Below, in pieces: positions 16-58,030 of a stretch of 64,000 nucleotides of DNA. Both the position numbers and the translations under genes were made by a program. Source of the DNA: a bacterium. GTDB lineage: Bacteria; Electryoneota; JAOADG01. The stretch's first letter is position 1. Every line of letters starts with the position of its first letter. The stretch is taken from the NCBI GenBank assembly GCA_963681965.1, contig OY820579.1, positions 3,616,001 through 3,680,000 of the forward strand, given 5' to 3'. The notes under the pieces were generated by a model. The model did not search any database, was not told the DNA's origin, and saw only the letters and a program-made list of their open reading frames with translations.

Positions 16-696
16 TTACTTCCAGCTAATATTGTTATTGTTGGAATTGGTACCGCTACGATTGATCATCTGAGCCGCTGGTTTTTGATTCGGAATCGTA
101 AACCGTCGGGGCGACAACGCCTGCATCTGCGGATCTTGCGCTGGTTCAGCCGGTTCCTGCTGAGCAACTGGATGCGGTTCATTATCGGAATCGGTGAACG
201 ATCGTAAAAATGCCGACTGTGCCGATGACAAACCAGCGTGATCCGGTTCCGGTTGCGAAACACGGACTTCCGGTGGTTGTGCTCGCGACATTTGCGGTTG
301 CGGAGCGCTGACCACTGGCGCCTGCAATGGTGGCAATGTCGTCGGAAGCGTCAACATGGGTTGCGCCGACCGTGCCGGGGCTACAACTGGCGGTGGTGCC
401 ATTTGCAACACCGGAGGTTGAGTAATCAGTTGTGGCGGAACGGGCGTATGCTGTGCCGGAGCAGGAACCGGTGCCGGAGTCGGCGTCGGAGGATGCTGCG
501 TCGGATGCAACGACGGATGCTGCTGCGTACCCTGCGGAGAAATCGGTACTGGTCGCGTTGCTGGTTGCGTTGCCGGTGCAGCTTTGCTACTACGACGTTC
601 TTTGATCCGGAAGATCACATACGATGCAATCGCAATAATGAATGTGATCAAGGTGATTAAAAAGATAATGGTCGAAAGCAATGGAATGAGTTCCAT
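16..696 (-). CDS. Single-pass membrane protein with long Pro/Gln-rich low-complexity tail
   Basis: Start moved to ATG at 696 (MELIPLL) behind GGAGG at 701-705. N-terminal hydrophobic helix, then RIKERR and a P/Q/A-rich region. Co-oriented downstream of the GT2 gene. Confidence 0.75.
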   Translation of the reverse strand: MELIPLLSTIIFLITLITFIIAIASYVIFRIKERRSSKAAPATQPATRPVPISPQGTQQHPSLHPTQHPPTPTPAPVPAPAQHTPVPPQLITQPPVLQMAPPPVVAPARSAQPMLTLPTTLPPLQAPVVSAPQPQMSRAQPPEVRVSQPEPDHAGLSSAQSAFLRSFTDSDNEPHPVAQQEPAEPAQDPQMQALSPRRFTIPNQKPAAQMINRSGTNSNNNNISWK

Positions 697-891
697 CAGA
701 CCTCCAAGCTGCCGCGAAAATCTGGACAATCTTCACGAGCAAGCGATCATACATGCGAAACGAAATATTAAGGTGAATATCGGTTCAGTTACGAATCCGA
801 ATTCTTTGAAAACTCCCGGTCACCCGGATAGTACTGATCAATGCTACAATTACAATGAACCGATGACGAAAACACTTACAAACGGATCGAT

Positions 892-2343
892 TTACAGACG
901 ACCAACCCGCTCGACCTTACCCCAATTCATCTTGATGCCGAGCAGTTCTTCCACGGTCGCAAGAAGTTTGGCAAAGTCAATCAACTGAATGAAATAGAAC
1001 CGGTAGATAATTGCGAATGGAACCAGTCGTAGTTCTTCTTTCTCAACCAGCACCGAATAAAGTGCCGCTACGGTATCGAGCACGGTAAGTTGAACCCACC
1101 ACAACACGATCAATGGCGACATGCCAAACCAAACTGCGACGATTAAGAACATTCCGTTGGCTAATACGTTCATGCCCGGCCAAAGTACCGATTCGAAAAT
1201 CATCTGCCACATTGTGAAAGTTCCGCGCCATCCGGTGTGAAATGGGTTGAGAAAGGTGCGATGCTTACGCAACGATTGGAGAATGCCACGCGTCCAACGA
1301 TATCGTTGTTTCAACAATTGCAGTAACTTCTCCGGCGCTTCGGTGAAACTGATCGCATCCGGTTCGTACTCAATCCGATACTGCTTCGAAATCATTTTCA
1401 AGGTCAGGTCGCAATCCTCGGCGAAAGTATCGGCATCCCAGCCACCGACATCGATCAACGCGCTCTTGCGAAACAATCCGATCGGACCGGGAATAATGTT
1501 CACTGCCTGAATGTAAGCTTGTGCGCGGCGCACAAAATTCAACCCTTCGACATATTCGAGTGCTTGCAAGTGGGTGATCATATTCACTCGATTGATCACT
1601 TTCACGTTCCCCGCCACACCGGCGATCGATGGATCGGAAAAGTGACGCATTGCCGCTCGCAGGGTATTTCGCGCCAACTTACTGTCACCATCCATGCAGA
1701 CAACCACATCTCCGGTTGCAACGCTGGCGCCGTGATTCAATGCGTGCGATTTACCCATATTGCGCTGAGTTAGTACCCGGACAATGATTGGACCGTACAC
1801 ACCCTGATGAACACCTTCCATCTTTTTCGCGATTTCCAAGGTGTCGTCCTTGGACCCATCGTCGATGACAACGATTTCGTAGTTCGGGTAATTCATCGTC
1901 AAGAGTGATCGGATCGATTGTTCAATCACCGGACCTTCGTTGTATGCCGGGACTAACACGGTCGCACGCAACTTTTCGTATTCCGCCGAGTCCGATGCTT
2001 TTTCCCGCGACAAGTGGAAATAGGACAACAACACCAACACCAGATAACGTCCGATCAACAGGAACAAGAAGAGCAGCAACGAAATCACCGAGACGTTGAC
2101 AATAATCGTCGGAAGCGAAATGTGCGTTCGGAGCAACGTGATATACGTGTAAATCGTAATCGCTCCGAAAATCACCAGTAGAATGATAATGACAAACCAA
2201 TAACCCCATTCCCCGGTGGAAGTGTTGACCAACGATTCGCCGGCAGAAAACGTCTCCGAATGGAGTTGCGCATGCTCATCGACCTGATGCGGTTCATGAT
2301 GTTGATTCTGCTTAGCGCTAGTTACTTTTGGTTCTTCCGTCAT
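892..2343 (-). CDS. Processive GT2 polysaccharide synthase, PgaC/IcaA-like
   Basis: VPAYNE, DDGS, GKSHALN, DGD, AED and QRYRW motifs. Two N-terminal and several C-terminal TM helices. No PilZ domain visible. Confidence 0.9.
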   Translation of the reverse strand: MTEEPKVTSAKQNQHHEPHQVDEHAQLHSETFSAGESLVNTSTGEWGYWFVIIILLVIFGAITIYTYITLLRTHISLPTIIVNVSVISLLLFLFLLIGRYLVLVLLSYFHLSREKASDSAEYEKLRATVLVPAYNEGPVIEQSIRSLLTMNYPNYEIVVIDDGSKDDTLEIAKKMEGVHQGVYGPIIVRVLTQRNMGKSHALNHGASVATGDVVVCMDGDSKLARNTLRAAMRHFSDPSIAGVAGNVKVINRVNMITHLQALEYVEGLNFVRRAQAYIQAVNIIPGPIGLFRKSALIDVGGWDADTFAEDCDLTLKMISKQYRIEYEPDAISFTEAPEKLLQLLKQRYRWTRGILQSLRKHRTFLNPFHTGWRGTFTMWQMIFESVLWPGMNVLANGMFLIVAVWFGMSPLIVLWWVQLTVLDTVAALYSVLVEKEELRLVPFAIIYRFYFIQLIDFAKLLATVEELLGIKMNWGKVERVGRL

Positions 2344-2356
2344 AACGCATCCATGG

Positions 2357-5356
2357 TTACAGATTAATCGTTACGGCACCGAATACGCCTTGATACCAGT
2401 ACTCGCCGTCGGTTCGAACGGTGCGAAGATAAGCGTAGGACAAACCTAACGAGACGCGACGCGAAAAGTGCCAATCGAAAGAACCGGCTAAATTTCGAAT
2501 CTGATCGTTTGTCTTCTGTACTTGTCCCAAGCCACCCTTCAGGTAATATGAAAACTTCTGATTCGTTCGCTTGAATTTCACCCATGCACCAATGGTCGTG
2601 TATTGATCCGGTGACCAATAACTGCTGTCTACTTTTTGAGCAGTCACGACTTCATACCGACCGCCGCAGGTGAAATACTTCGACATATCGTACCCGATTT
2701 CTCCCCAAAATTCAGTCCGGTTCTTATTATTGCTGAAGGAGAGAAAATCAAGTTGCCCTTCGATCGACCAGCGTGGCTGAAGCGAGTGGGACAACCACAG
2801 CTCGACACGCTCCGATCGCAAACGTCGAAGAAAAGTCTGTAATTCCTTCGTTGCAGCGATATCGAAAATCGCTTCCGAATTCGCGTAGGTCAATCGTGTC
2901 TTCATTCCAGATAATTCGGTAATGTCGTCGGTGATTTCGTAATTCAGATCGGCACGAATGGCTTGGGTACGTCGCTTGGCAAATTGATAACCCTTCGCCA
3001 CCAAGCTGCCGTAAGTGTGTTTGTCGAAAGTGTACTCAATCCCAGCCAGTCCAAACCAACCGATTTCGCCATACCCGTTTTGCGAGAGTTCGATATCGCC
3101 ACCGCCCAGTCGCAATCTCAATGGAAGCGTAAAGTTCATCAACAACGAACCGGTTTCTTCGCGCATTGTATAGTCTGAATTGTCGGTGAGATATTGATTG
3201 TCAATCTTTACACCGCGCAAGAATGGTCCATTCAGGTCGCGTAGCGCACGTTTTGCTTCGGTGCTCTTCGGATCAAGTCCCAAAACGCGGTTGTATGCTT
3301 CATAAGCACTGTAGGAATCACCTTTCCAGAGGTAGGCATTGGCGATTCCCAACTGGGCTTCCGTCGATTCCGGTTTCAATCGCAAAGCTCGTTCATACTC
3401 AAGTACTGCATGATCGTTGTCGCCTGCCCACGAAAGCGCCTGTGCGAACCGGAATCGGTAATCAAAGTTTCGCGGTGCCCCATCGGCAAGCTGCTGGTAA
3501 ATGCGTTGCGCTTCGTCGAATTGCTTGTCGGCAGTTAGTTCCAGTGCAAATTGGAACCGAAGTTCATCGTCGGATTGACGGCGTTCGGACGCGTAGCGAT
3601 ACTGAGCAACCGCCTCATTGTGTTTGCCGTTGGCTGAAAGTGCTTGTGCATAAGCAATTCGCAATTCGAGACTATCCGGAAATTCGGCAATACGCTGCTT
3701 CGATTGGAACAACATGATATTATTGTTTTCCAATAACTTTCGATCGATATCTTCGGCTAATGATTTGAGGTAATTGTCTTCAGGATTCTGTTCCAATAAG
3801 ATTTTGATGTGTTGGCGCGCTTCGTAGTAGCGTTTTGCATCGACATATAAACCGGCGAGGCGGCGGCGCATCGAATACGATCCCGGATCGGCTAGAACCT
3901 GTTTCTCCAAATGCATAATCAGTGGCGAAAGATCCTTGTCGAGCATCGTCATACCCTGTTTCGCTGCGGAATTGGTGGTATCGATTGCCAGGATATGAGA
4001 ATAAAGACTCTTTGCTTCGCCGTAATTACCCTGTCGCCGTTTCGCTTCCGCCAGACCATAAAGTGTACTTAAATCGGAGGGGTGGGTCAGCGAATCGAGA
4101 CGGAACAACGTTTCCGCTTCGGGAAGATTCGAATTGGAGTACATCAAAGCATTTGCCAATGCAAGATTAGCTTCGCGATTTCCCGGCAGCGCAGTATTGA
4201 CCATTCGCAATTCTTCGATCGTTTCATTGGATCGACCCATCCAATACATGACGCGCGCACGATCCAGTCGCATGTAGTTATCCTGAGGAACCAATTTCAA
4301 ATAAGTGTCGTACAGTTCCAGTGCGCCTTTGTGATCCGGAATTGTGCTGTAAACCTGTGCCAATTTTCGAATTGCCGAAGAGTCCGTCGGATTGGAAGCG
4401 ATCCGTTTGCGATAATCACCGGTCTGCTCGGTAAATAATTTCTGTTTGAAGGCAGAAATCTCTTCTTTAATTCGTTTAGCAGCAGTATCTTTTGGCGCGA
4501 CACGCAATCGGAGCGATACCAGCGAATCGGCTTCGTAAATCCGGTTTACTTTCAAATAATATTGTGCTAGTTGCGATAACGCCGGACCTTGAGGATCTTT
4601 CCTGACCGCGGTAAGGATCTGTTTCTCTTTATATCCGGGTTGATTCAGGATGTTGGCGATTTTCGAACTGGCTTTGGTATTCTTCGGTTCGATGGCGAGT
4701 ACTTTTCGGTACAATTCTACTGCGGCATCCTCTTCACCCTGCCAGAAAGTGATATCGGCGAGAAACATTCGCGCTTCGATGTTGGTCGGATTTTTTGCGA
4801 TAATCGTATTCAACTCATCGGCACTGGCTTTATAGTTTCGGCTCCAACCCAACACTTTCGCATATTCCAACCGAACGGAGTTGTCTTCCGGCTTCATCTG
4901 CAAATACTGTTCGTACACTTGTGACGCGCGGGTCGACATGCCATTACCACTTAAGTAGCGGGCAAAATCCAACACCGTAGCTGCCGGTACATTCGGTTGG
5001 CGAATTCGGGCTTCGAAATCTTCGATCCGGTTCACCTTCTTTGTCCGTTGGACGCCGGTCTCGGATGTCACCATCGAGGCGATTCGCGGATCCTTGGGAA
5101 ACTGCTGCACTAGATACTTGACGTGAGTATTGGCGCGATCTTTCTGCTTCAATTCTTGTAAGATCTGGATCAGTTGCAGTCGGGTATCGATGTCTTTCGG
5201 TACTTGCAACAAGTATTGTTCATATACCGTTGCAGCTTCCATCATAATACCGCTGTTGCGCAACCGATTGGCACGAGTCAGCAATACTTCGGGAGTATCC
5301 GCCAAGGCTACGGAGAAGAGCAGCAGTGTCAAGAGAGAAATGAGTGTCGTTCGCAT
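2357..5356 (-). CDS. TPR-rich secreted protein with C-terminal outer-membrane beta-barrel (PgaA/BcsC-like exporter)
   Basis: Signal peptide, about 700 aa of TPR-like helical repeats, then about 280 aa of amphipathic beta-strands ending GAVTINL. Lies 13 bp upstream of the GT2 gene. Confidence 0.8.
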   Translation of the reverse strand: MRTTLISLLTLLLFSVALADTPEVLLTRANRLRNSGIMMEAATVYEQYLLQVPKDIDTRLQLIQILQELKQKDRANTHVKYLVQQFPKDPRIASMVTSETGVQRTKKVNRIEDFEARIRQPNVPAATVLDFARYLSGNGMSTRASQVYEQYLQMKPEDNSVRLEYAKVLGWSRNYKASADELNTIIAKNPTNIEARMFLADITFWQGEEDAAVELYRKVLAIEPKNTKASSKIANILNQPGYKEKQILTAVRKDPQGPALSQLAQYYLKVNRIYEADSLVSLRLRVAPKDTAAKRIKEEISAFKQKLFTEQTGDYRKRIASNPTDSSAIRKLAQVYSTIPDHKGALELYDTYLKLVPQDNYMRLDRARVMYWMGRSNETIEELRMVNTALPGNREANLALANALMYSNSNLPEAETLFRLDSLTHPSDLSTLYGLAEAKRRQGNYGEAKSLYSHILAIDTTNSAAKQGMTMLDKDLSPLIMHLEKQVLADPGSYSMRRRLAGLYVDAKRYYEARQHIKILLEQNPEDNYLKSLAEDIDRKLLENNNIMLFQSKQRIAEFPDSLELRIAYAQALSANGKHNEAVAQYRYASERRQSDDELRFQFALELTADKQFDEAQRIYQQLADGAPRNFDYRFRFAQALSWAGDNDHAVLEYERALRLKPESTEAQLGIANAYLWKGDSYSAYEAYNRVLGLDPKSTEAKRALRDLNGPFLRGVKIDNQYLTDNSDYTMREETGSLLMNFTLPLRLRLGGGDIELSQNGYGEIGWFGLAGIEYTFDKHTYGSLVAKGYQFAKRRTQAIRADLNYEITDDITELSGMKTRLTYANSEAIFDIAATKELQTFLRRLRSERVELWLSHSLQPRWSIEGQLDFLSFSNNKNRTEFWGEIGYDMSKYFTCGGRYEVVTAQKVDSSYWSPDQYTTIGAWVKFKRTNQKFSYYLKGGLGQVQKTNDQIRNLAGSFDWHFSRRVSLGLSYAYLRTVRTDGEYWYQGVFGAVTINL

Positions 5357-5366
5357 GATTCTCTCG

Positions 5367-7028
5367 TTAGTTTAACAGAGTCATATTTCGATTGTTGTCC
5401 GAAACCTGCGAGAGCAGATCCTGCTCGTTGATCGCATCGTCCGGAAAAACCGAAATCGAAGTGAATAACATCAACTGTTTGCCAAGAAGAACGCGTTGAC
5501 CGTGCGTTCCACTCTTTAATTCATTGATTACTCTACGGATAAAGAGTTCCGAACCTTCTCGATCACATTCAGTCAACATCACCAGGATCTTGTTCATGTG
5601 CCGGCAAAGTCGGTCACCCGTATTGCGCATCGAAATCCGGATCGTATCGGCTATTTGATGAAATGCTTGAACACCGTCATGAGGGGATTGCTGTCCGGGA
5701 ACTGAAGTGGTCGTATTGACCAACCGAAATGACACTAGCGAGAAGTTGCGTTTATTCGGGTAATCGCGAATGATCTGCATATTCATGATTTCTTTGAAAA
5801 CCGGATAGGTAACGATAGTGTTGTCGATCCCTTTACCGAGTTCGTCGAATTCATTCACACCACTCGGTAATTGCTGAACGGTCATTGCAGGAGTGCGTTT
5901 CGCTACGATCGCATCGAGGGTCTCGTGTTTTACCAGCGTCTTTTCGAATGCTTTGATGATTTCAGCCTTAACGACCGGGTAAACAAATAAGCCATCGGCA
6001 CCAGCCTGCTTCACCGACTGATAATTGATACCACCGGCAAATTCAGTCGCGATCACAAAAATTGCTTGTTTACTATTGTGATCCCGGATTTGTCGAAGCA
6101 CATCAGCCCAGTTGTCGATGGTCGAAGCATTGACTACGATCAGATCGAAATCCCCAATACCGAGATGCGAAACCAATTCTTTGGCGGAACTGTATTGCTC
6201 GATCTGGCTGTCGCGATTGAAGATGTCTTCGATTTCCTCGCGGGTCTCGTCATTCCGGTCGAGAATCGCACAGTTGATCGGTACATCTTGTAGCTGCGGG
6301 GTCAGAGTATACTTACTCTCGTTACTCATCGTCGGCGCCGAGACGTTCAAAATGAAACCGCGACCATATTCGATCTGTACATTGTAGGTGATCGGCGGAA
6401 AGAACGGATTGATCATCTTGTGGATCGAGAAAGTCTTCTGGTCGGGGGAAGTTCGAAGCGGAACGTCCAGAACAAAACTTCCGACTGCGGCATCTTCCAA
6501 CAATTCGACGATACGCGCCGCGGTTGGACTATTCGGATGCCCCGTTATCAGAAGAGTTGTTACGTACAATTGTTCGAGCGATTCAGTGAGCGAGTAGACG
6601 TAATTGGACAACTGCGCCTCATTGACTCGCGCCAACAACGGCACGAAAGTATCGAATACCAGTCGCGTGCAACCGTTATTCTTTACATACTGCTCGATTT
6701 CGCCGAGGAAATGAACAACTCCGCCTAACTGGAAATTGCCACTCAAAATCTCGAAGGGATACTCGAGCAAAATGAGCTTGTTTTCCATTAGTGCAGTTTC
6801 AAGCGGGAATCCCATGGACTCGCTCTTGATAATGAGATTGTCGAGACGTTCGCTGGAGATCAATATACCCGCTTCACCCGATTCGTATCCCGCAAGCAGA
6901 TACTGTAGAGCGAAGGTGGTTCGACCTGACTGAGCGGGTCCTCGTAACAGATAGGTTCGATTTGAGTACAGTCCGCCATATGCTGCATCTATGAAATCGA
7001 AACCGGAACTAATTCTAGTGTAGATCAT
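5367..7028 (-). CDS. KaiC/RecA-like ATPase domain + pseudo-receiver + degenerate GGDEF domain (BcsE-like architecture)
   Basis: ATG at 7028 behind GGAGT. TRISSGFDFIDAAYGGL..GPAQSGRTT and RLVFDT (KaiC-like). REC-like segment DLIVVN..AGADG. C-terminal FSLVSFRL..MRNTGDRLCRHMNKILVML GGDEF-fold pattern without GGDEF. Confidence 0.8.
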   Translation of the reverse strand: MIYTRISSGFDFIDAAYGGLYSNRTYLLRGPAQSGRTTFALQYLLAGYESGEAGILISSERLDNLIIKSESMGFPLETALMENKLILLEYPFEILSGNFQLGGVVHFLGEIEQYVKNNGCTRLVFDTFVPLLARVNEAQLSNYVYSLTESLEQLYVTTLLITGHPNSPTAARIVELLEDAAVGSFVLDVPLRTSPDQKTFSIHKMINPFFPPITYNVQIEYGRGFILNVSAPTMSNESKYTLTPQLQDVPINCAILDRNDETREEIEDIFNRDSQIEQYSSAKELVSHLGIGDFDLIVVNASTIDNWADVLRQIRDHNSKQAIFVIATEFAGGINYQSVKQAGADGLFVYPVVKAEIIKAFEKTLVKHETLDAIVAKRTPAMTVQQLPSGVNEFDELGKGIDNTIVTYPVFKEIMNMQIIRDYPNKRNFSLVSFRLVNTTTSVPGQQSPHDGVQAFHQIADTIRISMRNTGDRLCRHMNKILVMLTECDREGSELFIRRVINELKSGTHGQRVLLGKQLMLFTSISVFPDDAINEQDLLSQVSDNNRNMTLLN

Positions 7029-7447
7029 ACACGACTCCGTGGAGTTGCCATTTGCACGTATATAGTACACTGTGAGCGTTTTAATTAGGGTGAAGAGGGT
7101 GTTATAGAAAGCGTTTAGTTGCCGTTTTAAAAATTTAGCATTCAGTTAAGATCTTAATTAATATTAACATAGAGACCGTTACTCTCTCGGAGATTTCCAC
7201 ATTTTGAATGGAAAATGGGTGGTTCTCGACGAGGTAATTCCCCTTCTAACGATCCAATGGGATATTCAAGACCCTACTCGATCTCGGAAAAACGTGATTC
7301 ATATCACTTTAAATTGTATCTAAGGGGTGTTTTTTTTATTATTTTCAATCACTACTAAAACGTCTCATTGAATGATGGACATATATTAGTATCCAGATCG
7401 ATCGACAACTCAACTTTTGCTGGCAATGAGAAAGGCACCTCGGCGTT

Positions 7448-9190
7448 ATGTCTTCAACCTCTAATTGTATATTCTATTTTCGAATACCAACCGCCGAGGA
7501 ATGGGCTCCCTATCTAGCAAACCTGCAAAGATCCGGTCTTCCAGTCAATCTCCACTCGCTCTATAGTCAAAACTCGGGTATTCTCCCGGAACTAGTTTTA
7601 CCCTCATTATTAGAATGCCTGAAACTGTTTTGCGATAAGGAAGAACAGTACCAGAACCTTCCGATTCAACAATATGCGCTGGACTTTATTACCGACGAGA
7701 CGGTTTTATATCATACTGCGAATGTCTTGGATTACGGGTATCGGGTCACGCTCCGGCAACTAATGATGTTCGCGATGACTGCGGAATCGATCCAACAAGC
7801 CGCAGCTATTCCGACTTGGAGTCAGGAGGGAATTCGCTTTGCAACTTCTGCTGCCACTGCGATACAACAGGGCGATTGGGCGGGATTGTGGGAAGCGATT
7901 CAACTCGGATTGAAGGCAATGCCGGAAAATCCGTTCATTTCGGCATTTGCCGCAGAAGTTGCCTTTATTCGCGGCGATGGATTAGCCGATTTGAATGCCG
8001 CTGCGCTGCAACTCAATCATATCCTCGAGCTTCACCAAGCTCAAGCATTGCCGGAGAATTTGATGAAGACGGTCACTTCGTTGGGTACGATGATCGGTCT
8101 GATTCAACAAGATTATTCGGCTGCCGCGCAATTCATCGCAATCGGTCTGAAGTACGATCCTCAAAATATCAATCAATGGTTTGACAATCTTCGGATTTTA
8201 CTCGCAATCGAATCGCCCGTTAATTTGGAAAATGCTCGACTAGCAATCACCGCGACTTTAAATGGTTTTTCCGATGACCTATATTATCTGTGTATTCTGG
8301 CATTTTCGATCGAACCGCTGTTTCAAAAAATATTTATCCATCAGGACTGGTTTGCCGATTACATCGATCGCTTTACACGGGTTCTGACCGAATTGGAAAG
8401 TCTTGTCGGAACACTAACCAATTTTTACAATGCCGAAGATTCAACGCTTGCAAGCGATATCGTGCCAATTTCGAATATGCTGCAATGGTATCGTGCCGCC
8501 CTTACCACTAAGAAAGCGATCATCGGTCTTCGAGCTCTTCAATTTTATCGCGAAACGCTCAATCAGCGTCTCGGGATTATGCAAACATCGTTACGAACGG
8601 AAGGCATTGATCAGATCCACGAAGAGATCGATATCCTGCTGCAAGTGAATCAACTCGGATTGTCGATCCATATGCCCGAGCACGTTATTTCCCAAGCTCG
8701 GGAATTGTTCAGTTTCGAAACGAACGAACCAAATTCCGAGTTGCAATGGTTCAGTGAGTTGCAGTCGTTTCAGAACCAGTACCAACCATTGTTAGAAACA
8801 TGTCGCTTGGTTATTGCCGAAATTCCTGAAATCAATCAACAAATCCACGACTTGGAATTGAACATCCGTCGTGAGAAACCGAAATCCGGACACTCACTCC
8901 GCTTCGTATTCACCCAACTGTTTTATATTGCTGCAGCGTTAGTGCTCTGGTATTACGTCGGGATTGTTACGATGGAAGGCGGTGTGAAAGGTGCAGCAGT
9001 ATTTATTTCGATGTTTGCAATCGCTTTTTCCGTGCTGATTAAACCGATGGAACTCTTTCGACAACTTGGCGGTGTATCGAGCAACAAACGATTGATTCAA
9101 CAATATCAGATTGAAATATCGAAAAATCAGAGTCGCAAGAACGAACTCGTAACGATGCTTCAAAATACGATTCACCAAGTGACTCATTAA
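7448..9190 (+). CDS. Hypothetical helical/TPR-like protein with two C-terminal TM helices and a coiled coil
   Basis: 580-aa ORF with a helical repeat pattern and hydrophobic segments near aa 485-530. No family recognised. Confidence 0.65.
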   Translation: MSSTSNCIFYFRIPTAEEWAPYLANLQRSGLPVNLHSLYSQNSGILPELVLPSLLECLKLFCDKEEQYQNLPIQQYALDFITDETVLYHTANVLDYGYRVTLRQLMMFAMTAESIQQAAAIPTWSQEGIRFATSAATAIQQGDWAGLWEAIQLGLKAMPENPFISAFAAEVAFIRGDGLADLNAAALQLNHILELHQAQALPENLMKTVTSLGTMIGLIQQDYSAAAQFIAIGLKYDPQNINQWFDNLRILLAIESPVNLENARLAITATLNGFSDDLYYLCILAFSIEPLFQKIFIHQDWFADYIDRFTRVLTELESLVGTLTNFYNAEDSTLASDIVPISNMLQWYRAALTTKKAIIGLRALQFYRETLNQRLGIMQTSLRTEGIDQIHEEIDILLQVNQLGLSIHMPEHVISQARELFSFETNEPNSELQWFSELQSFQNQYQPLLETCRLVIAEIPEINQQIHDLELNIRREKPKSGHSLRFVFTQLFYIAAALVLWYYVGIVTMEGGVKGAAVFISMFAIAFSVLIKPMELFRQLGGVSSNKRLIQQYQIEISKNQSRKNELVTMLQNTIHQVTH

Positions 9191-9305
9191 TCACTACTTC
9201 AACTTGTTGTGGTCGTCACATCCTCGGGATCATATCACCTCGAGAGTATTTATTTAACAATTATATCTACTGTATATTGTCGAGTTTGTTAGTTATCGAT
9301 CAATT

Positions 9306-11093
9306 TTGGTCTTATCGAATTGCAGGTTCAATTTGAGTTCTGAGTACCCGTATACACCCGATCCTTTTCACACCCCGCAACAACCTGTTCAACAGACAGT
9401 TGTAAATCGTCCGCCTCCCACCGATCCGAGAATATTTCACAAACGATTTCTCATTGTATCGTCAGTATTGCTACTCGTAGCGATTGCGTTCATCGCTTAC
9501 CCCTCGCAAAAAGGGGGCGAAACCTATATCCGGATTAATCAAGTTGGGTATCTCCCCGGTGAGACAAAAACTGCAATCATAATGTCGGTCAAGGATATCT
9601 CCGGAGCGAGCTTTCAAGTTCTGAATCAAAATTTAACGGAAGCATACAGCGGTAGTTTGAGCGATGATCGCGGTCCGTATTTGGCATTTCCACACCACTT
9701 CGTCGCGGATTTCAGCGCGTTACAGGAACCCGGTCGATATACGGTGTCGGCTAACGATAATAGTTCTCCTCCTTTTCGTATTGCGAAAGCGATTTATAGC
9801 GATGTCGTCGAAACCACACTCAAATTTTTCCGGATGCAGGAGTGTGGAAACATTAATAATGAATTCCGATCTCCCTGCCACCTAAAAGACGCAACTTCGG
9901 TGATTGGTGCTCAGACAACTATATCCAAACTTGATTTGGTCGGTTCGTGGCACGATGCTGGTGACTATACCAAATACCTTATTACAACCGCATACGCCAG
10001 TTATTTTCTTTTACTTAGTTATCACCAACAACATGCACTTTTGAAAAATGGGTCGCGAAACGTAGCTCAAGAAGCTTTAAATGAAGCAAGAGTGGGCACC
10101 GATTGGTTACTCAAATTGCATTACCAACCCGACCGATTGATCGTTCAGGTTTCCGATGCGCGCGATCACGATGTTGGTTGGCGACTACCCGAAAAAGATC
10201 GATTGGAGAACAATCGCCCGGCTTATGATGAACCTTCACGCGCAGTGTGCGGCATTTACGCAGCGACGATGGCGTTAGCTGCTAAAACTTTTGCCGAGGC
10301 AGGTGATCCAGCCTATGCAGCGAGGTGTTTACAACAGGCTCGGGAAGTATTCGATCTTGCCGATACTGGTATCCCCAATTATAGTGCGGTTGCAGAGCAG
10401 ATGTATTGCGACAAATCGTATCTCGACAATCTTACGCTGGGCGCAACGGAATTGTATCGAATGACCGGTGAACAAAAATATCTTACCCGGGCAATCGGTT
10501 GGTGCGATTCGCTGGAAATCATGCAGTGGTTATCTTGGGGAGATTTAGAGGGACTGGCATTTGCCCGAATTGGTCAGTATCATCCTCCCGCTTTTCAGCG
10601 CCTACATTTAGTTCTTTCCAAATTTGACGAAATTGCCAATTCGAATCCCTTTGGCTATCCACTCGAGTCGTATCCCTGGGGTTCGCTAGGTCAACAAACT
10701 GCAGTTGCAGCGATCGCACTGTTGTATCAGGAAAGTAGCGGACACACTGAGTTTACCAATTTGATCCTGAAACAACGCGATTTTCTACTGGGCTGCAACA
10801 GCCATGGAGTATCGTTTATCGGAGCAGTTGGTACCGAATACGTTCGCAATTTTCACCATCAGATCGCGATGATCAAAGGGAGTTCGCTACCGGGTGCTGT
10901 ATCGGAAGGGTATTGCGCGAAAAGTCTGATCCGGAAATACAATATCGAATTAAAAGATCCCGACCGGTTTGCCCGCTTCCAGACGCCTGATGTGGTCTAC
11001 TACGACGATCGCAACGATTACATCAGCAACGAACCGACGATCGTGACCAATGCCCAGACCGTCTATGTCCTGACCGCGTTTGTCACCAACTGA
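9306..11093 (+). CDS. Glycoside hydrolase family 9 with N-terminal Ig-like (CelD_N) domain and membrane anchor
   Basis: IRINQVGYLP, GSWHDAGDYTKY, HHQ and YYDDRNDYISNEPTI motifs. Start uncertain (TTG 9306 or 9333). Confidence 0.88.
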   Translation: MVLSNCRFNLSSEYPYTPDPFHTPQQPVQQTVVNRPPPTDPRIFHKRFLIVSSVLLLVAIAFIAYPSQKGGETYIRINQVGYLPGETKTAIIMSVKDISGASFQVLNQNLTEAYSGSLSDDRGPYLAFPHHFVADFSALQEPGRYTVSANDNSSPPFRIAKAIYSDVVETTLKFFRMQECGNINNEFRSPCHLKDATSVIGAQTTISKLDLVGSWHDAGDYTKYLITTAYASYFLLLSYHQQHALLKNGSRNVAQEALNEARVGTDWLLKLHYQPDRLIVQVSDARDHDVGWRLPEKDRLENNRPAYDEPSRAVCGIYAATMALAAKTFAEAGDPAYAARCLQQAREVFDLADTGIPNYSAVAEQMYCDKSYLDNLTLGATELYRMTGEQKYLTRAIGWCDSLEIMQWLSWGDLEGLAFARIGQYHPPAFQRLHLVLSKFDEIANSNPFGYPLESYPWGSLGQQTAVAAIALLYQESSGHTEFTNLILKQRDFLLGCNSHGVSFIGAVGTEYVRNFHHQIAMIKGSSLPGAVSEGYCAKSLIRKYNIELKDPDRFARFQTPDVVYYDDRNDYISNEPTIVTNAQTVYVLTAFVTN

Positions 11094-56368: not shown

Positions 56369-58030
56369 TCAGTCGACGATAGTGTCGATATCCGGCGGTT
56401 TATTTTCCTCGGTAGCCATCGGAACAAATTCGCCTGCGCCCTGACAGAGGTAGACCCGGTTCCGACCGTTCTGCTTCGCTTGATACAGTGCCATATCGGC
56501 AAGATGGATCAATTCCTCGGGCGATTTCACTTCGACAGTAGTACAGGACAAACCGATACTGATGGTAATATGTCCTTCGGGTTGTTTATGAGCATTGACA
56601 AAACTGAACGTTTCGACAATAAACCGCAGTTTGTCCGCTAACGCCGAAGCACCTTCCATCGATGCACCGGGCAGGATGATCGCAAATTCTTCGCCACCGT
56701 ATCGCGCCACAAAGTCGGTTTCGCGCACCGATCGTTTCAACAAATCGGCAATACCGCGCAAGACCTGATCGCCCTGAAGGTGTCCTTCCCGGTCGTTATA
56801 AATTTTGAAATGATCCACGTCGATCATCATTAATGCGACTTCGACGCCAAACCGTTGGAACCGCTTGAATTCGCGCGAGAGCTGATCCGAAAAGGCACGA
56901 CGGTTGTTCACGCCGGTTAATCCATCAACCGATGCCATCTGACTGAGCGACGAGAACAGCCGGGCATTTGCCAAGCTGCGGGTGAAGAGTTCCGCCATAT
57001 CGCTCAACCATTCCAGATCGCGATCGTTAACCCGATTCGTTTCACGGAAAAACAGCTTTAATATTCCGTGAACGCGACGCTCGTACACCAGTGGAAGAAT
57101 TACTGCGCTTTTCAGTTCGGTGATGAACAGTAGTTTGGGGTTCAGAACTGCATCTTCTTTAATCAAATCGGATATCAATACCGCATGTCGATGTCGATAG
57201 ATTGCACGCAGGATCGACGTTTGCAGTTCCAATGTCATCATCTTGCCGCCGTACTTCGTATCGTTGCGGCGCCAGGTAAATCGTTCGACAAATTTTTGTT
57301 TATCGCGATCGAATAGTTGGAGTTCGAAAAAGTCGAAATTGATTGCTTCTTTAAATCGGTCGGTAGCCACTGGAAGTAATTTTCCCAAATCCAATTCCCA
57401 AGCGATCGAATTGGCAAACGAATTCATTCGATCCGACCAGAGGATTCGGAAATCGCGATGTTCGTTACTCTCGTTGAAATGTTCAAGTAGATTCGTAATC
57501 AGTTGGAAGCGACTGCCGGAATTTGACAACTCCAGCCACATCGGATCGATTTTCTCGCCGTACCAATAGGTATGCAGCGCCGAAGAGATGGTCGTGGGAT
57601 CGGACGATACCCAAGTGGTGAAAACCGGTTCCTGCATTTCACGGGTCGAGAGATAGTCGGTCACGATAATCGTGATCGACCAACCCGATGTACAAAACCC
57701 AAAAAAGAATCCAATTTCCGGAACGTTTTGATGAAGAAACGGTAAGGTTTTCGATTGAGTCTTACCGTCGGTTCCGCGTCGAATCGATGTCCAACCGGCT
57801 TCGATCCAATCGTCAGTCACGCGAAAGTTCGGGAGTTTGTTCCGAATTTCTTCGGATTGCCAGCAAAATAGATCAAATGGTTCAGCGGGATTCGCTTCTA
57901 AAGTACTGCCAATCGAATAGAGTAACTGAAGAAAGGTGGTTTTTTTCAGAGGGAGTGAAATCATTCCGGGAAACGGGGGTTCACTCGCGGCAATCGCTTT
58001 TCCCAGCTTGCGCGGTTTCACTGACTGCAC
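56369..58030 (-). CDS. Sensor-GAF-GGDEF diguanylate cyclase
   Basis: DGLTGVNNRR, DVDHFKIYND, GHLQGD, RETD I-site and GGEEF. GAF domain upstream. Confidence 0.92.
   Translation of the reverse strand: MQSVKPRKLGKAIAASEPPFPGMISLPLKKTTFLQLLYSIGSTLEANPAEPFDLFCWQSEEIRNKLPNFRVTDDWIEAGWTSIRRGTDGKTQSKTLPFLHQNVPEIGFFFGFCTSGWSITIIVTDYLSTREMQEPVFTTWVSSDPTTISSALHTYWYGEKIDPMWLELSNSGSRFQLITNLLEHFNESNEHRDFRILWSDRMNSFANSIAWELDLGKLLPVATDRFKEAINFDFFELQLFDRDKQKFVERFTWRRNDTKYGGKMMTLELQTSILRAIYRHRHAVLISDLIKEDAVLNPKLLFITELKSAVILPLVYERRVHGILKLFFRETNRVNDRDLEWLSDMAELFTRSLANARLFSSLSQMASVDGLTGVNNRRAFSDQLSREFKRFQRFGVEVALMMIDVDHFKIYNDREGHLQGDQVLRGIADLLKRSVRETDFVARYGGEEFAIILPGASMEGASALADKLRFIVETFSFVNAHKQPEGHITISIGLSCTTVEVKSPEELIHLADMALYQAKQNGRNRVYLCQGAGEFVPMATEENKPPDIDTIVD

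Follow-up and report, generated by a model that had tools for sequence, protein, structure and literature searches.

Which polymer is made and exported by the gene cluster at the left end of this stretch of DNA, and by what kind of machine? The stretch, called the window below, comprises 64,000 nucleotides (positions 3616001-3680000 of contig C1 in the genome denoted G000). What is known in detail about synthase-dependent secretion comes from four paradigms in Proteobacteria: Bcs, Pga, Pel and Alg. An earlier note, made from the sequence of the window, had described a synthase-dependent polysaccharide locus of an uncatalogued type that mixes Pga-like and Bcs-like parts. The gene content supports a locus of this type, and we state with high confidence that it makes and exports a polysaccharide; confidence that the sugar is an N-acetylhexosamine is moderate. 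No description of such a system was found in the literature searched. Its parts are of familiar kinds and their combination appears to be undescribed, and by the defining features of the Pga, Bcs and Pel families it lies outside all three. The Pga-Bcs hybrid stood as far as its Pga-like parts are concerned; the genes to the left of the window encode proteins with a carbohydrate esterase family 4 (CE4) fold that resemble PelA and PgaB, and the logic of the locus is therefore Pga/Pel-like rather than that of a Pga/Bcs hybrid.

The locus consists of nine minus-strand genes, termed A to I, that span ~17.9 kb, 10.9 kb of it beyond the left edge of the window in the adjoining 16 kb (L001; window coordinate = L001 coordinate minus 16000). 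Consecutive genes are separated, in order from A to I, by 10, 13, 162, 3, -10, 22, 4 and -4 bp. The gaps of 10 and 13 bp between A and B and between B and C were as the earlier note had given them, and its expectation that the operon continues past the left edge was borne out by five further minus-strand genes, E to I, in L001: at positions 18-10, TAAGGAATG on the minus strand contains both the TAA that terminates D and the ATG that starts E. The flanking genes do not complete a standard pgaABCD operon or a described bcs operon, and no PgaB/GH153, PgaD, BcsB, BcsZ or PilZ was detected among the locus proteins. The note had proposed looking among the left-hand genes for a deacetylase or a BcsB-like protein; CE4-fold proteins (E, F and I) were found there, and no BcsB family was detected.

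Among 40 relatives, eight carry an ortholog of the synthase C (59-73% identity): G002 and G003 in family f1, G004, G014, G027, G031 and G039 in f2, and G016 in f7; in G001, which belongs to the same genus, the match is no better than 35%. Synteny of the core A-B-C-(D)-E-F-(G) extends over these eight genomes, which come from three families with Calditrichaeota as their named relatives. A, B and C occur in 8/8 loci and a D-like gene in six, and in the assessable loci an E-like gene was seen in 6/7, F in 7/7 and G in 5/7 (the contig of G039 ends after D); H and I are extra to G000. The genes thus co-occur in other genomes, as the note's reading required, and because synteny is conserved in eight of them the locus is more than a chance assembly. 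In G016, A and B form one 1566-aa frame without a stop (L025:603-5303) and the synthase (5653-6954) has an in-frame TGA; this genome is 77% complete, and a misassembly, gene decay or recoding may lie behind these features. When 79 genomes were scanned with a profile of A, 18 had homologs (G000, 3/3 in f1, 10/16 in f2, 3/16 in f3 and 1/1 in f7) and none of the 42 genomes of f4, f5, f6, f8 and f9 did. Profile searches of a collection of 5.8 billion protein clusters gave 14 relatives of F and 12 near-full-length relatives of A, those with a taxonomic label being Calditrichota, and an exhaustive hidden Markov model search of 1.84 billion representatives gave 20 relatives of A at E<=1e-30, followed by a thin tail of distant proteins spanning most or all of its three domains. 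A contig scan with one F peptide pattern returned 10 loci and is not informative on absence outside the phylum.

C (892-2343, minus strand; 483 aa in the open reading frame (ORF) listing) is a membrane-embedded processive synthase of glycosyltransferase family 2 (GT2). It matched GT2 families in the Pfam scan, with no match to PilZ. The processive-GT2 motifs DDGS, DGDS, AEDCD and QRYRW are invariant in 8/8 C orthologs; they are flanked by transmembrane (TM) segments at residues 50-68, 80-98 and 386-429 (two N-terminal and about three C-terminal helices), and the N-terminus is disordered. Combined, the motifs and the flanking helices identify a processive membrane enzyme of the BcsA/PgaC/NodC/HAS type. 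The best curated family was PgaC_IcaA with 211.8 bits, followed by NodC (101.8) and CelA (71.3), in agreement with the PgaC/IcaA-like synthase without PilZ that had been proposed. Neither the cut-off of the PgaC_IcaA equivalog (NCBIfam TIGR03937, 422.3 bits; 648 bits for the control E. coli PgaC) nor that of CelA (TIGR03030, 699.1 bits) was reached.

The position of C was analyzed in a GT2 tree (29 rows, 443 columns, LG+G4, rooted on BcsA/CrdS) comprising 8 Calditrichota C orthologs, 13 environmental proteins chosen from 120 listed, the GT2 parts of two plasmid fusions and, as references, two PgaC, NodC, HasA, CrdS and the BcsA core. The C clade grouped at 89/97 with 435-466-aa proteins from Myxococcota, Ignavibacteria and metagenomes, which themselves score ~200-217 bits to PgaC_IcaA. 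The sister of this group is formed by GT2s fused to CE4, one of them also to a GH18-like domain (87/90); PgaC (80/79) and then NodC with HasA branch next. The deep branching order is tentative because the program warns of long branches; the split from the glucan synthases is well supported (100/100). C lies on the hexosamine-synthase side of the tree, with PgaC, NodC and HasA and away from BcsA and CrdS, near but outside PgaC/IcaA. Its closest named sister clade, the Deinococcus and Sphingobium plasmid fusions (87/90), shows the same GT2-CE4 coupling in one protein of ~1100 aa, in one case with a GH18-like part, whereas separate genes are used in this locus; unlike here, no TPR exporter or A-type regulator is annotated near the fusions. 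In family f2 (L024:10008-12389, L023:8461-10398, L021:10491-12380) the synthase frame extends by ~100-345 low-complexity residues up to the end of B, and this extension may be a long disordered cytoplasmic N-terminus or merely an open frame.

B (2357-5356, minus strand; 999 aa, ORF listing), the probable export conduit, has a signal peptide, ~700 aa of tetratricopeptide repeats (TPR) matching TPR families, and a C-terminal part of ~285 aa. Its TPR part aligns with that of E. coli BcsC (hhalign 98%), and the whole B profile gave 1.5% against PgaA. Family scores for the protein were 66.8 for PGA_TPR_OMP (cut-off 366.65) and 66.2 for BcsC NF008520 (cut-off 858). BCSC_C scored 18.4 bits, below the cut-off of 23.5; Atlas features of the C-terminus reached 0.94 to the PgaA_barrel and Slam clusters, which is a lead only, and a PDB profile search with this part returned nothing. 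By these weak signs the C-terminus is a candidate outer-membrane beta-barrel. H (L001:6901-9921, minus strand; 1006 aa), the second TPR protein, is a paralog of B.

The CE4-fold proteins E (the first 12 bases of the window, 1-12, and L001:13922-16012; 696 aa), F (L001:11796-13931; 711 aa) and I (L001:5132-6904; 590 aa), all on the minus strand, are mutually homologous (22-26% identity). None reached a Pfam or NCBIfam gathering score, with sub-threshold matches to GH42M for I and to AuxB for E, and no PgaB or GH153 family was matched by the three at E<=0.01. In the AlphaFold2 model of F (pLDDT 68.4, pTM 0.69), a TM helix at the N-terminus is joined to a GATase1/GH42M-like domain, a CE4 fold and a beta-sandwich. 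Of these, the CE4 fold superposes on 3rxz (Z 21.7, rmsd 2.8 A over 231 aa), and the fold matches listed include a known CE4 pseudoenzyme. Foldseek ranks PelA first for F (6.6e-9; VIA Z 14.1 over 367 aa, rmsd 11.2 A). E has an additional C-terminal TM helix and a cytoplasmic tail. The CE4 motifs Asp-Asp, His-x-x-x-His, Arg-Pro and His were examined in the relatives. The E-type orthologs of G003, G031 and G014 pass Polysacc_deac_1 (PF01522; 55.4, 28.1 and 59.3 bits, respectively, cut-off 23.1) and keep HGDIED, HGDxH, FRPPE and LNYH; most CE4 catalytic residues are lost in the E-type proteins of G002, G004 and G027 and in E and I of G000, and F is without them in every genome. Two paralogs elsewhere in G000 (604 and 611 aa; L060:9667-11481 and L061:9174-11009) pass PF01522 by hmmscan with 42.9 and 49.3 bits. 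Each adjoins a 1036-aa TPR protein, the two gene pairs spanning L060:9667-14606 and L061:6039-11009 with no synthase adjacent; counting H-I, a pair of TPR and CE4-fold genes that recalls pgaA-pgaB is found three times in this genome. The remaining gene, G (L001:9926-11773, minus strand; 615 aa), encodes PKD/Ig domains with a lipoprotein-like signal.

The first gene, A (5367-7070, minus strand; 567 aa, ORF listing), encodes a cytoplasmic regulator composed of a KaiC-like ATPase (residues ~19-237), a pseudo-receiver (~263-386) and a degenerate GGDEF domain (~413-567). KaiC was its only Pfam match (1.7e-21), and a profile of 8 orthologs matched KaiC (2e-21), receivers (1e-7) and WspR (5.5e-4) in the PDB. 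The AlphaFold2 model fits the KaiC CI domain over residues 20-237 (VIA Z 16.4, rmsd 3.2 A over 191 aa), receivers over residues 264-386 (VIA Z 16.4, rmsd 2.4 A over 121 aa) and GGDEF domains over residues 413-564 (VIA Z 16.2, rmsd 2.3 A over 130 aa). By fold, A thus has a BcsE-like architecture, with a RecA/KaiC-like domain, a degenerate receiver and a degenerate GGDEF domain in one soluble protein. In the BcsE study PMC7439463, BcsE is laid out as a KaiC-modelled RecA-like N-domain, a degenerate receiver and a degenerate GGDEF domain with an RxxD I-site, and that paper was the one item on this type of protein in the literature searched. The claim of a receptor of BcsE architecture therefore held for the domain plan, by fold, and failed for sequence similarity: the BcsE family PF10995 (GIL domain) was not matched in A at E<=0.01, and BcsE was absent from the 50 PDB fold matches listed for the model.

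All three domains of A have lost canonical residues. In the Walker A motif, GPxxSGR(T/S), 8/8 orthologs have Arg where Lys is canonical. Against E. coli CheY, Asn314 falls opposite Asp57, the phospho-acceptor there (hhalign 90%, a comparison that replaced an uninformative single-sequence PDB search with the receiver part). In place of the GGDEF motif stands MDKV or MNKI, and ahead of it R482 and D486 are invariant in 8/8 orthologs; in the 6 Calditrichota-clade A sequences aligned, the I-site region is RGxND or RNTGD, with RxxxD spacing. The canonical RxxD is present in 9/9 selected distant full-length relatives (P0189, P0192, P0200, P0205, P0266, P0195, P0237, P0220 and P0221), several of which also keep the Walker Lys and the receiver Asp. 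Two strong GGDEF proteins are encoded in the G000 genome; one of them, a bona fide GGDEF of 172.9 bits in a 559-aa frame, lies in the window at ~56456-56935 (minus strand).

These residues bear on whether A responds to cyclic di-GMP (c-di-GMP) at all. It might instead be a nucleotide-independent scaffold, or take its signal from ATP/ADP or from a kinase or receiver that partners it, and we give this alternative a little less than an even chance. The altered I-site of the six clade sequences speaks for it, and the P-loop, which keeps GxxxxGR(T/S), may still bind nucleotide; it accounts less well for the invariance of R482 and D486, for the canonical RxxD in the nine distant relatives and for the two strong GGDEF proteins of the genome. 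That the I-site, in its RxxxD variant, lets A sense c-di-GMP is, by these motifs, a possibility that we hold with low to moderate confidence.

D (16-729, minus strand, with a likely start ATG at 696; 237 aa) is a Pro-rich single-pass membrane protein. In its alignment the TM helix is invariant, the Pro/Gln/Glu linker varies, and the cytoplasmic C-terminus is conserved, with LSxAQSAFLxSF, LRRF and a terminal WK. G000 has a second A paralog (42% identity; C1:562578-564269), behind which come a 186-aa ORF and a D-like protein (to 565945; L062:9579-12946) that shares the TM helix, the linker and the C-terminal motifs of D; this second locus adjoins genes for a PglF-like dehydratase, a DegT aminotransferase and a methyltransferase. 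The same trio of A-type gene, 186-aa ORF and D-like gene is present in G001 (L063:9390-12472), where the synthase ortholog is missing. Regulator and tether therefore travel together, independent of the synthase, and mainly because they do so, mirroring BcsE and BcsF, we infer that A may bind D; by this analogy the interaction is proposed with low to moderate confidence. A complex prediction for C (residues 45-483) with D gave no support (score 0.01, mark 0.32) and is not evidence either way.

Alternatively, the locus could simply be a divergent pga-type system for poly-N-acetylglucosamine (PNAG), in which C is PgaC, B is PgaA, E, F and I correspond to the deacetylase part of PgaB, D is PgaD and the GH9 enzyme encoded nearby is unrelated. 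PgaC_IcaA is indeed the best curated family of C, the pairing of a TPR/probable-barrel protein with a CE4-fold protein occurs three times in the genome as in pgaA-pgaB, and the gene after the synthase, like pgaD, encodes a small membrane protein. Against these likenesses, C scores half of the PgaC cut-off and far below E. coli PgaC, the CE4-fused clade separates it from PgaC in the tree, no GH153, PgaB or PgaD family was detected in the scans of the locus proteins, and B failed to align with PgaA (hhalign 1.5%). Moreover, pga systems are not known to include a BcsE-like regulator. We consider a PNAG system of this kind rather unlikely.

The GH9 gene (9306-11093, plus strand; 595 aa) lies outside the operon, two genes upstream of it. 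Its product matches GH9 of Pfam (1e-81, 276 bits, cut-off 27.7) and the Ig-like CelD_N (3.6e-18), and starts with a hydrophobic signal-anchor. HDAGD is found at residue 216 and NEP at 575; among the orthologs NEP is kept in 8/8 and DAGD in 7/8 (DAAD in G039), and their N-termini are of the signal-anchor or lipoprotein-like type. The G000 protein gave no match to a sorting domain of the type IX secretion system (T9SS). The best solved relatives are endo-beta-1,4-glucanases (~100 bits). Of 41 genomes, 9 have GH9 and 9 have the operon: both in 8, GH9 alone in G009, the operon alone in the 77% complete G016 and neither in 31, including some members of f1 and f2. In five relatives (G002, G003, G004, G014 and G027) the GH9 gene is followed by a gene for a stand-alone CheY-like receiver. 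These receivers measure 123-145 aa and share 39-65% identity (L054:7522-7935, L055:3590-3991, L056:9923-10294, L057:7449-7886 and contig C26 of G004); the best match in G000 (63%) is distant, near C1:889100-889495.

A nutritional or otherwise unrelated glycanase, whose closeness to the operon is incidental, would explain why GH9 sits on another contig beside a stand-alone receiver gene in 5/7 of the operon-bearing relatives that have it, and why G009 has GH9 with neither operon nor A. It is harder to reconcile with the agreement of GH9 and operon in 39/41 genomes, including the f1 and f2 members without either, with a second and different adjacency in G004, and with the signal-anchor or lipoprotein-like N-termini and the lack of a detected T9SS domain in the G000 protein; such an enzyme seems to us doubtful. 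The hydrolase role put forward for GH9 earlier is supported by association across genomes and not by operon membership, and it is from this co-occurrence that GH9 is regarded as a probable accessory hydrolase of the system. A beta-1,4-glucan resembling cellulose, with GH9 in the role of BcsZ or KORRIGAN, B as BcsC and A as BcsE, would suit the co-occurrence of GH9, its endo-beta-1,4-glucanase relatives, the 98% match of the B TPR region to BcsC and the BcsE plan of A, but it is very unlikely given a synthase on the PgaC/NodC/HasA side, away from BcsA/CrdS, with only 71.3 bits to CelA, no PilZ or BcsB detected, and CE4-fold partners that argue for an acetylated amino sugar.

We therefore return to a synthase-dependent exopolysaccharide secretion machine particular to a subset of Calditrichota, and consider it rather more probable than not that it works as follows. 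C would polymerise a UDP-sugar, most likely an N-acetylhexosamine, and thread the chain over the inner membrane, and the periplasmic chain would be received by the membrane-anchored E and F (and I). In some relatives a motif-complete E-type protein would remove N-acetyl groups from the polymer; in G000, binding or scaffolding is the probable role of E, F and I. G and the TPR-plus-barrel proteins B and H would bring the chain to the outer membrane and take it across, and the periplasmic GH9 probably trims or releases it. A would set the output post-translationally, probably held at the membrane by the cytoplasmic tail of D as BcsF holds BcsE, and possibly sensing c-di-GMP through the RxxxD variant. 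We infer the identity of the polymer and the topology of this pathway from the kinds of proteins encoded. A fully specified version, in which a beta-1,4-N-acetylhexosamine (chitin/chitosan-like) polymer is trimmed by GH9 and its synthase switched by a BcsE-type A docked on the Trp-Lys-ending C-terminal tail of D, is distinctly improbable as a whole.

Several observations weigh against this mechanism or parts of it. Firstly, with a score so far under the PgaC cut-off, the PgaC family assigns neither sugar nor linkage to C. Secondly, PF01522 was not matched by E, F or I of G000 (cut-off 23.1) and, with most of the CE4 catalytic and metal motifs gone, deacetylation by the operon itself is doubtful. 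Thirdly, the C-terminal part of B gave non-significant hhalign values of 1.1% and 0.6% against the BcsC and PgaA barrels. Concerning the regulator, the A profile showed no similarity to E. coli BcsE (hhalign probability 0.7%), and with RGxND instead of RxxD, Arg for the Walker Lys and no phospho-acceptor, no ligand or signal can be assigned to A. The models of A (pLDDT 62.9) and F (68.4) were built from alignments of 8 sequences. As for GH9, it adjoins the operon in 2/9 operon genomes (divergent and two genes upstream in G000, convergent and after G in G004), the co-occurrence count overstates independence because the genomes are related, and a beta-1,4 family, as the endoglucanase matches indicate, is a poor fit to a beta-1,6 PNAG product.

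Compared with known systems, the locus shares with E. coli PgaABCD a PilZ-less GT2 nearest PgaC/IcaA, a TPR protein with a probable porin, CE4-fold partners and a small membrane protein after the synthase. It differs in that C falls outside the PgaC equivalog, no GH153 domain or PgaD family was detected, and the CE4-fold proteins are built of a TM anchor, a GATase1-like domain, a CE4 fold and a beta-sandwich and are mostly catalytically degenerate; it also adds the BcsE-like regulator, the PKD lipoprotein, a second TPR protein and GH9. The locus resembles Pseudomonas Pel (PelA, PelB and PelD) in pairing a modifier of deacetylase fold with a TPR exporter, here with a probable porin, and with a regulator whose GGDEF is degenerate, and PelA tops the Foldseek matches of F. 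F is without the hydrolase domain of PelA, Pel relies on a GT4 synthase (PelF) together with PelD/E/G whereas a GT2 is used here, and PelD has a TM-GAF-GGDEF plan with a degenerate GGDEF whereas A is soluble with KaiC-like and receiver domains. With enterobacterial type II cellulose secretion (PMC7439463), the locus has in common a regulator encoded by the leading gene with RecA/KaiC-like, degenerate receiver and degenerate GGDEF domains, and a single-pass protein, D, that could tether A as BcsF tethers BcsE. The TPR match of B to BcsC and an associated glucanase-family hydrolase add to this likeness; unlike that system, this locus has no BcsA/PilZ, BcsB, BcsQ/R or BcsG, a GH9 rather than a GH8 hydrolase, a hexosamine-type synthase, and an A without sequence similarity to BcsE.

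With a PgaC-like yet distinct synthase, an expanded and mostly dead-looking CE4 family and a BcsE plan without detectable kinship, the locus suggests that synthase-dependent logic has been rebuilt from other parts in a little-studied sediment phylum. Calditrichota are abundant in marine sediments, and the polymer could be a new component of their biofilm matrix. Should A and D work like BcsE and BcsF, a regulator with its tether would be a general device for gating synthases and not a peculiarity of enterobacterial cellulose; if the chitin/chitosan-like reading holds, the CE4 pseudo-deacetylases would be periplasmic guides of the polymer. A membrane-bound GH9 works with the plant cellulose synthase, and the GH9 link would provide a bacterial counterpart.

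The surroundings of the operon yielded further observations. Base composition is unremarkable, and a promoter/terminator scan of 6900-9400 gave 6 promoter-like sites compared to 5.3 expected, which is uninformative. Between the operon and GH9 lies X (7448-9190, plus strand; 580 aa), a TPR-like protein by Atlas leads with two C-terminal TM segments; it was dropped as a member of the system, its sole match among the 40 relatives being one of 19% identity in G002. To the left of the operon, L001:1649-2659 and L001:3293-4636 (minus strand) encode two proteins with T9SS C-terminal sorting domains, and the organism therefore uses type IX secretion.

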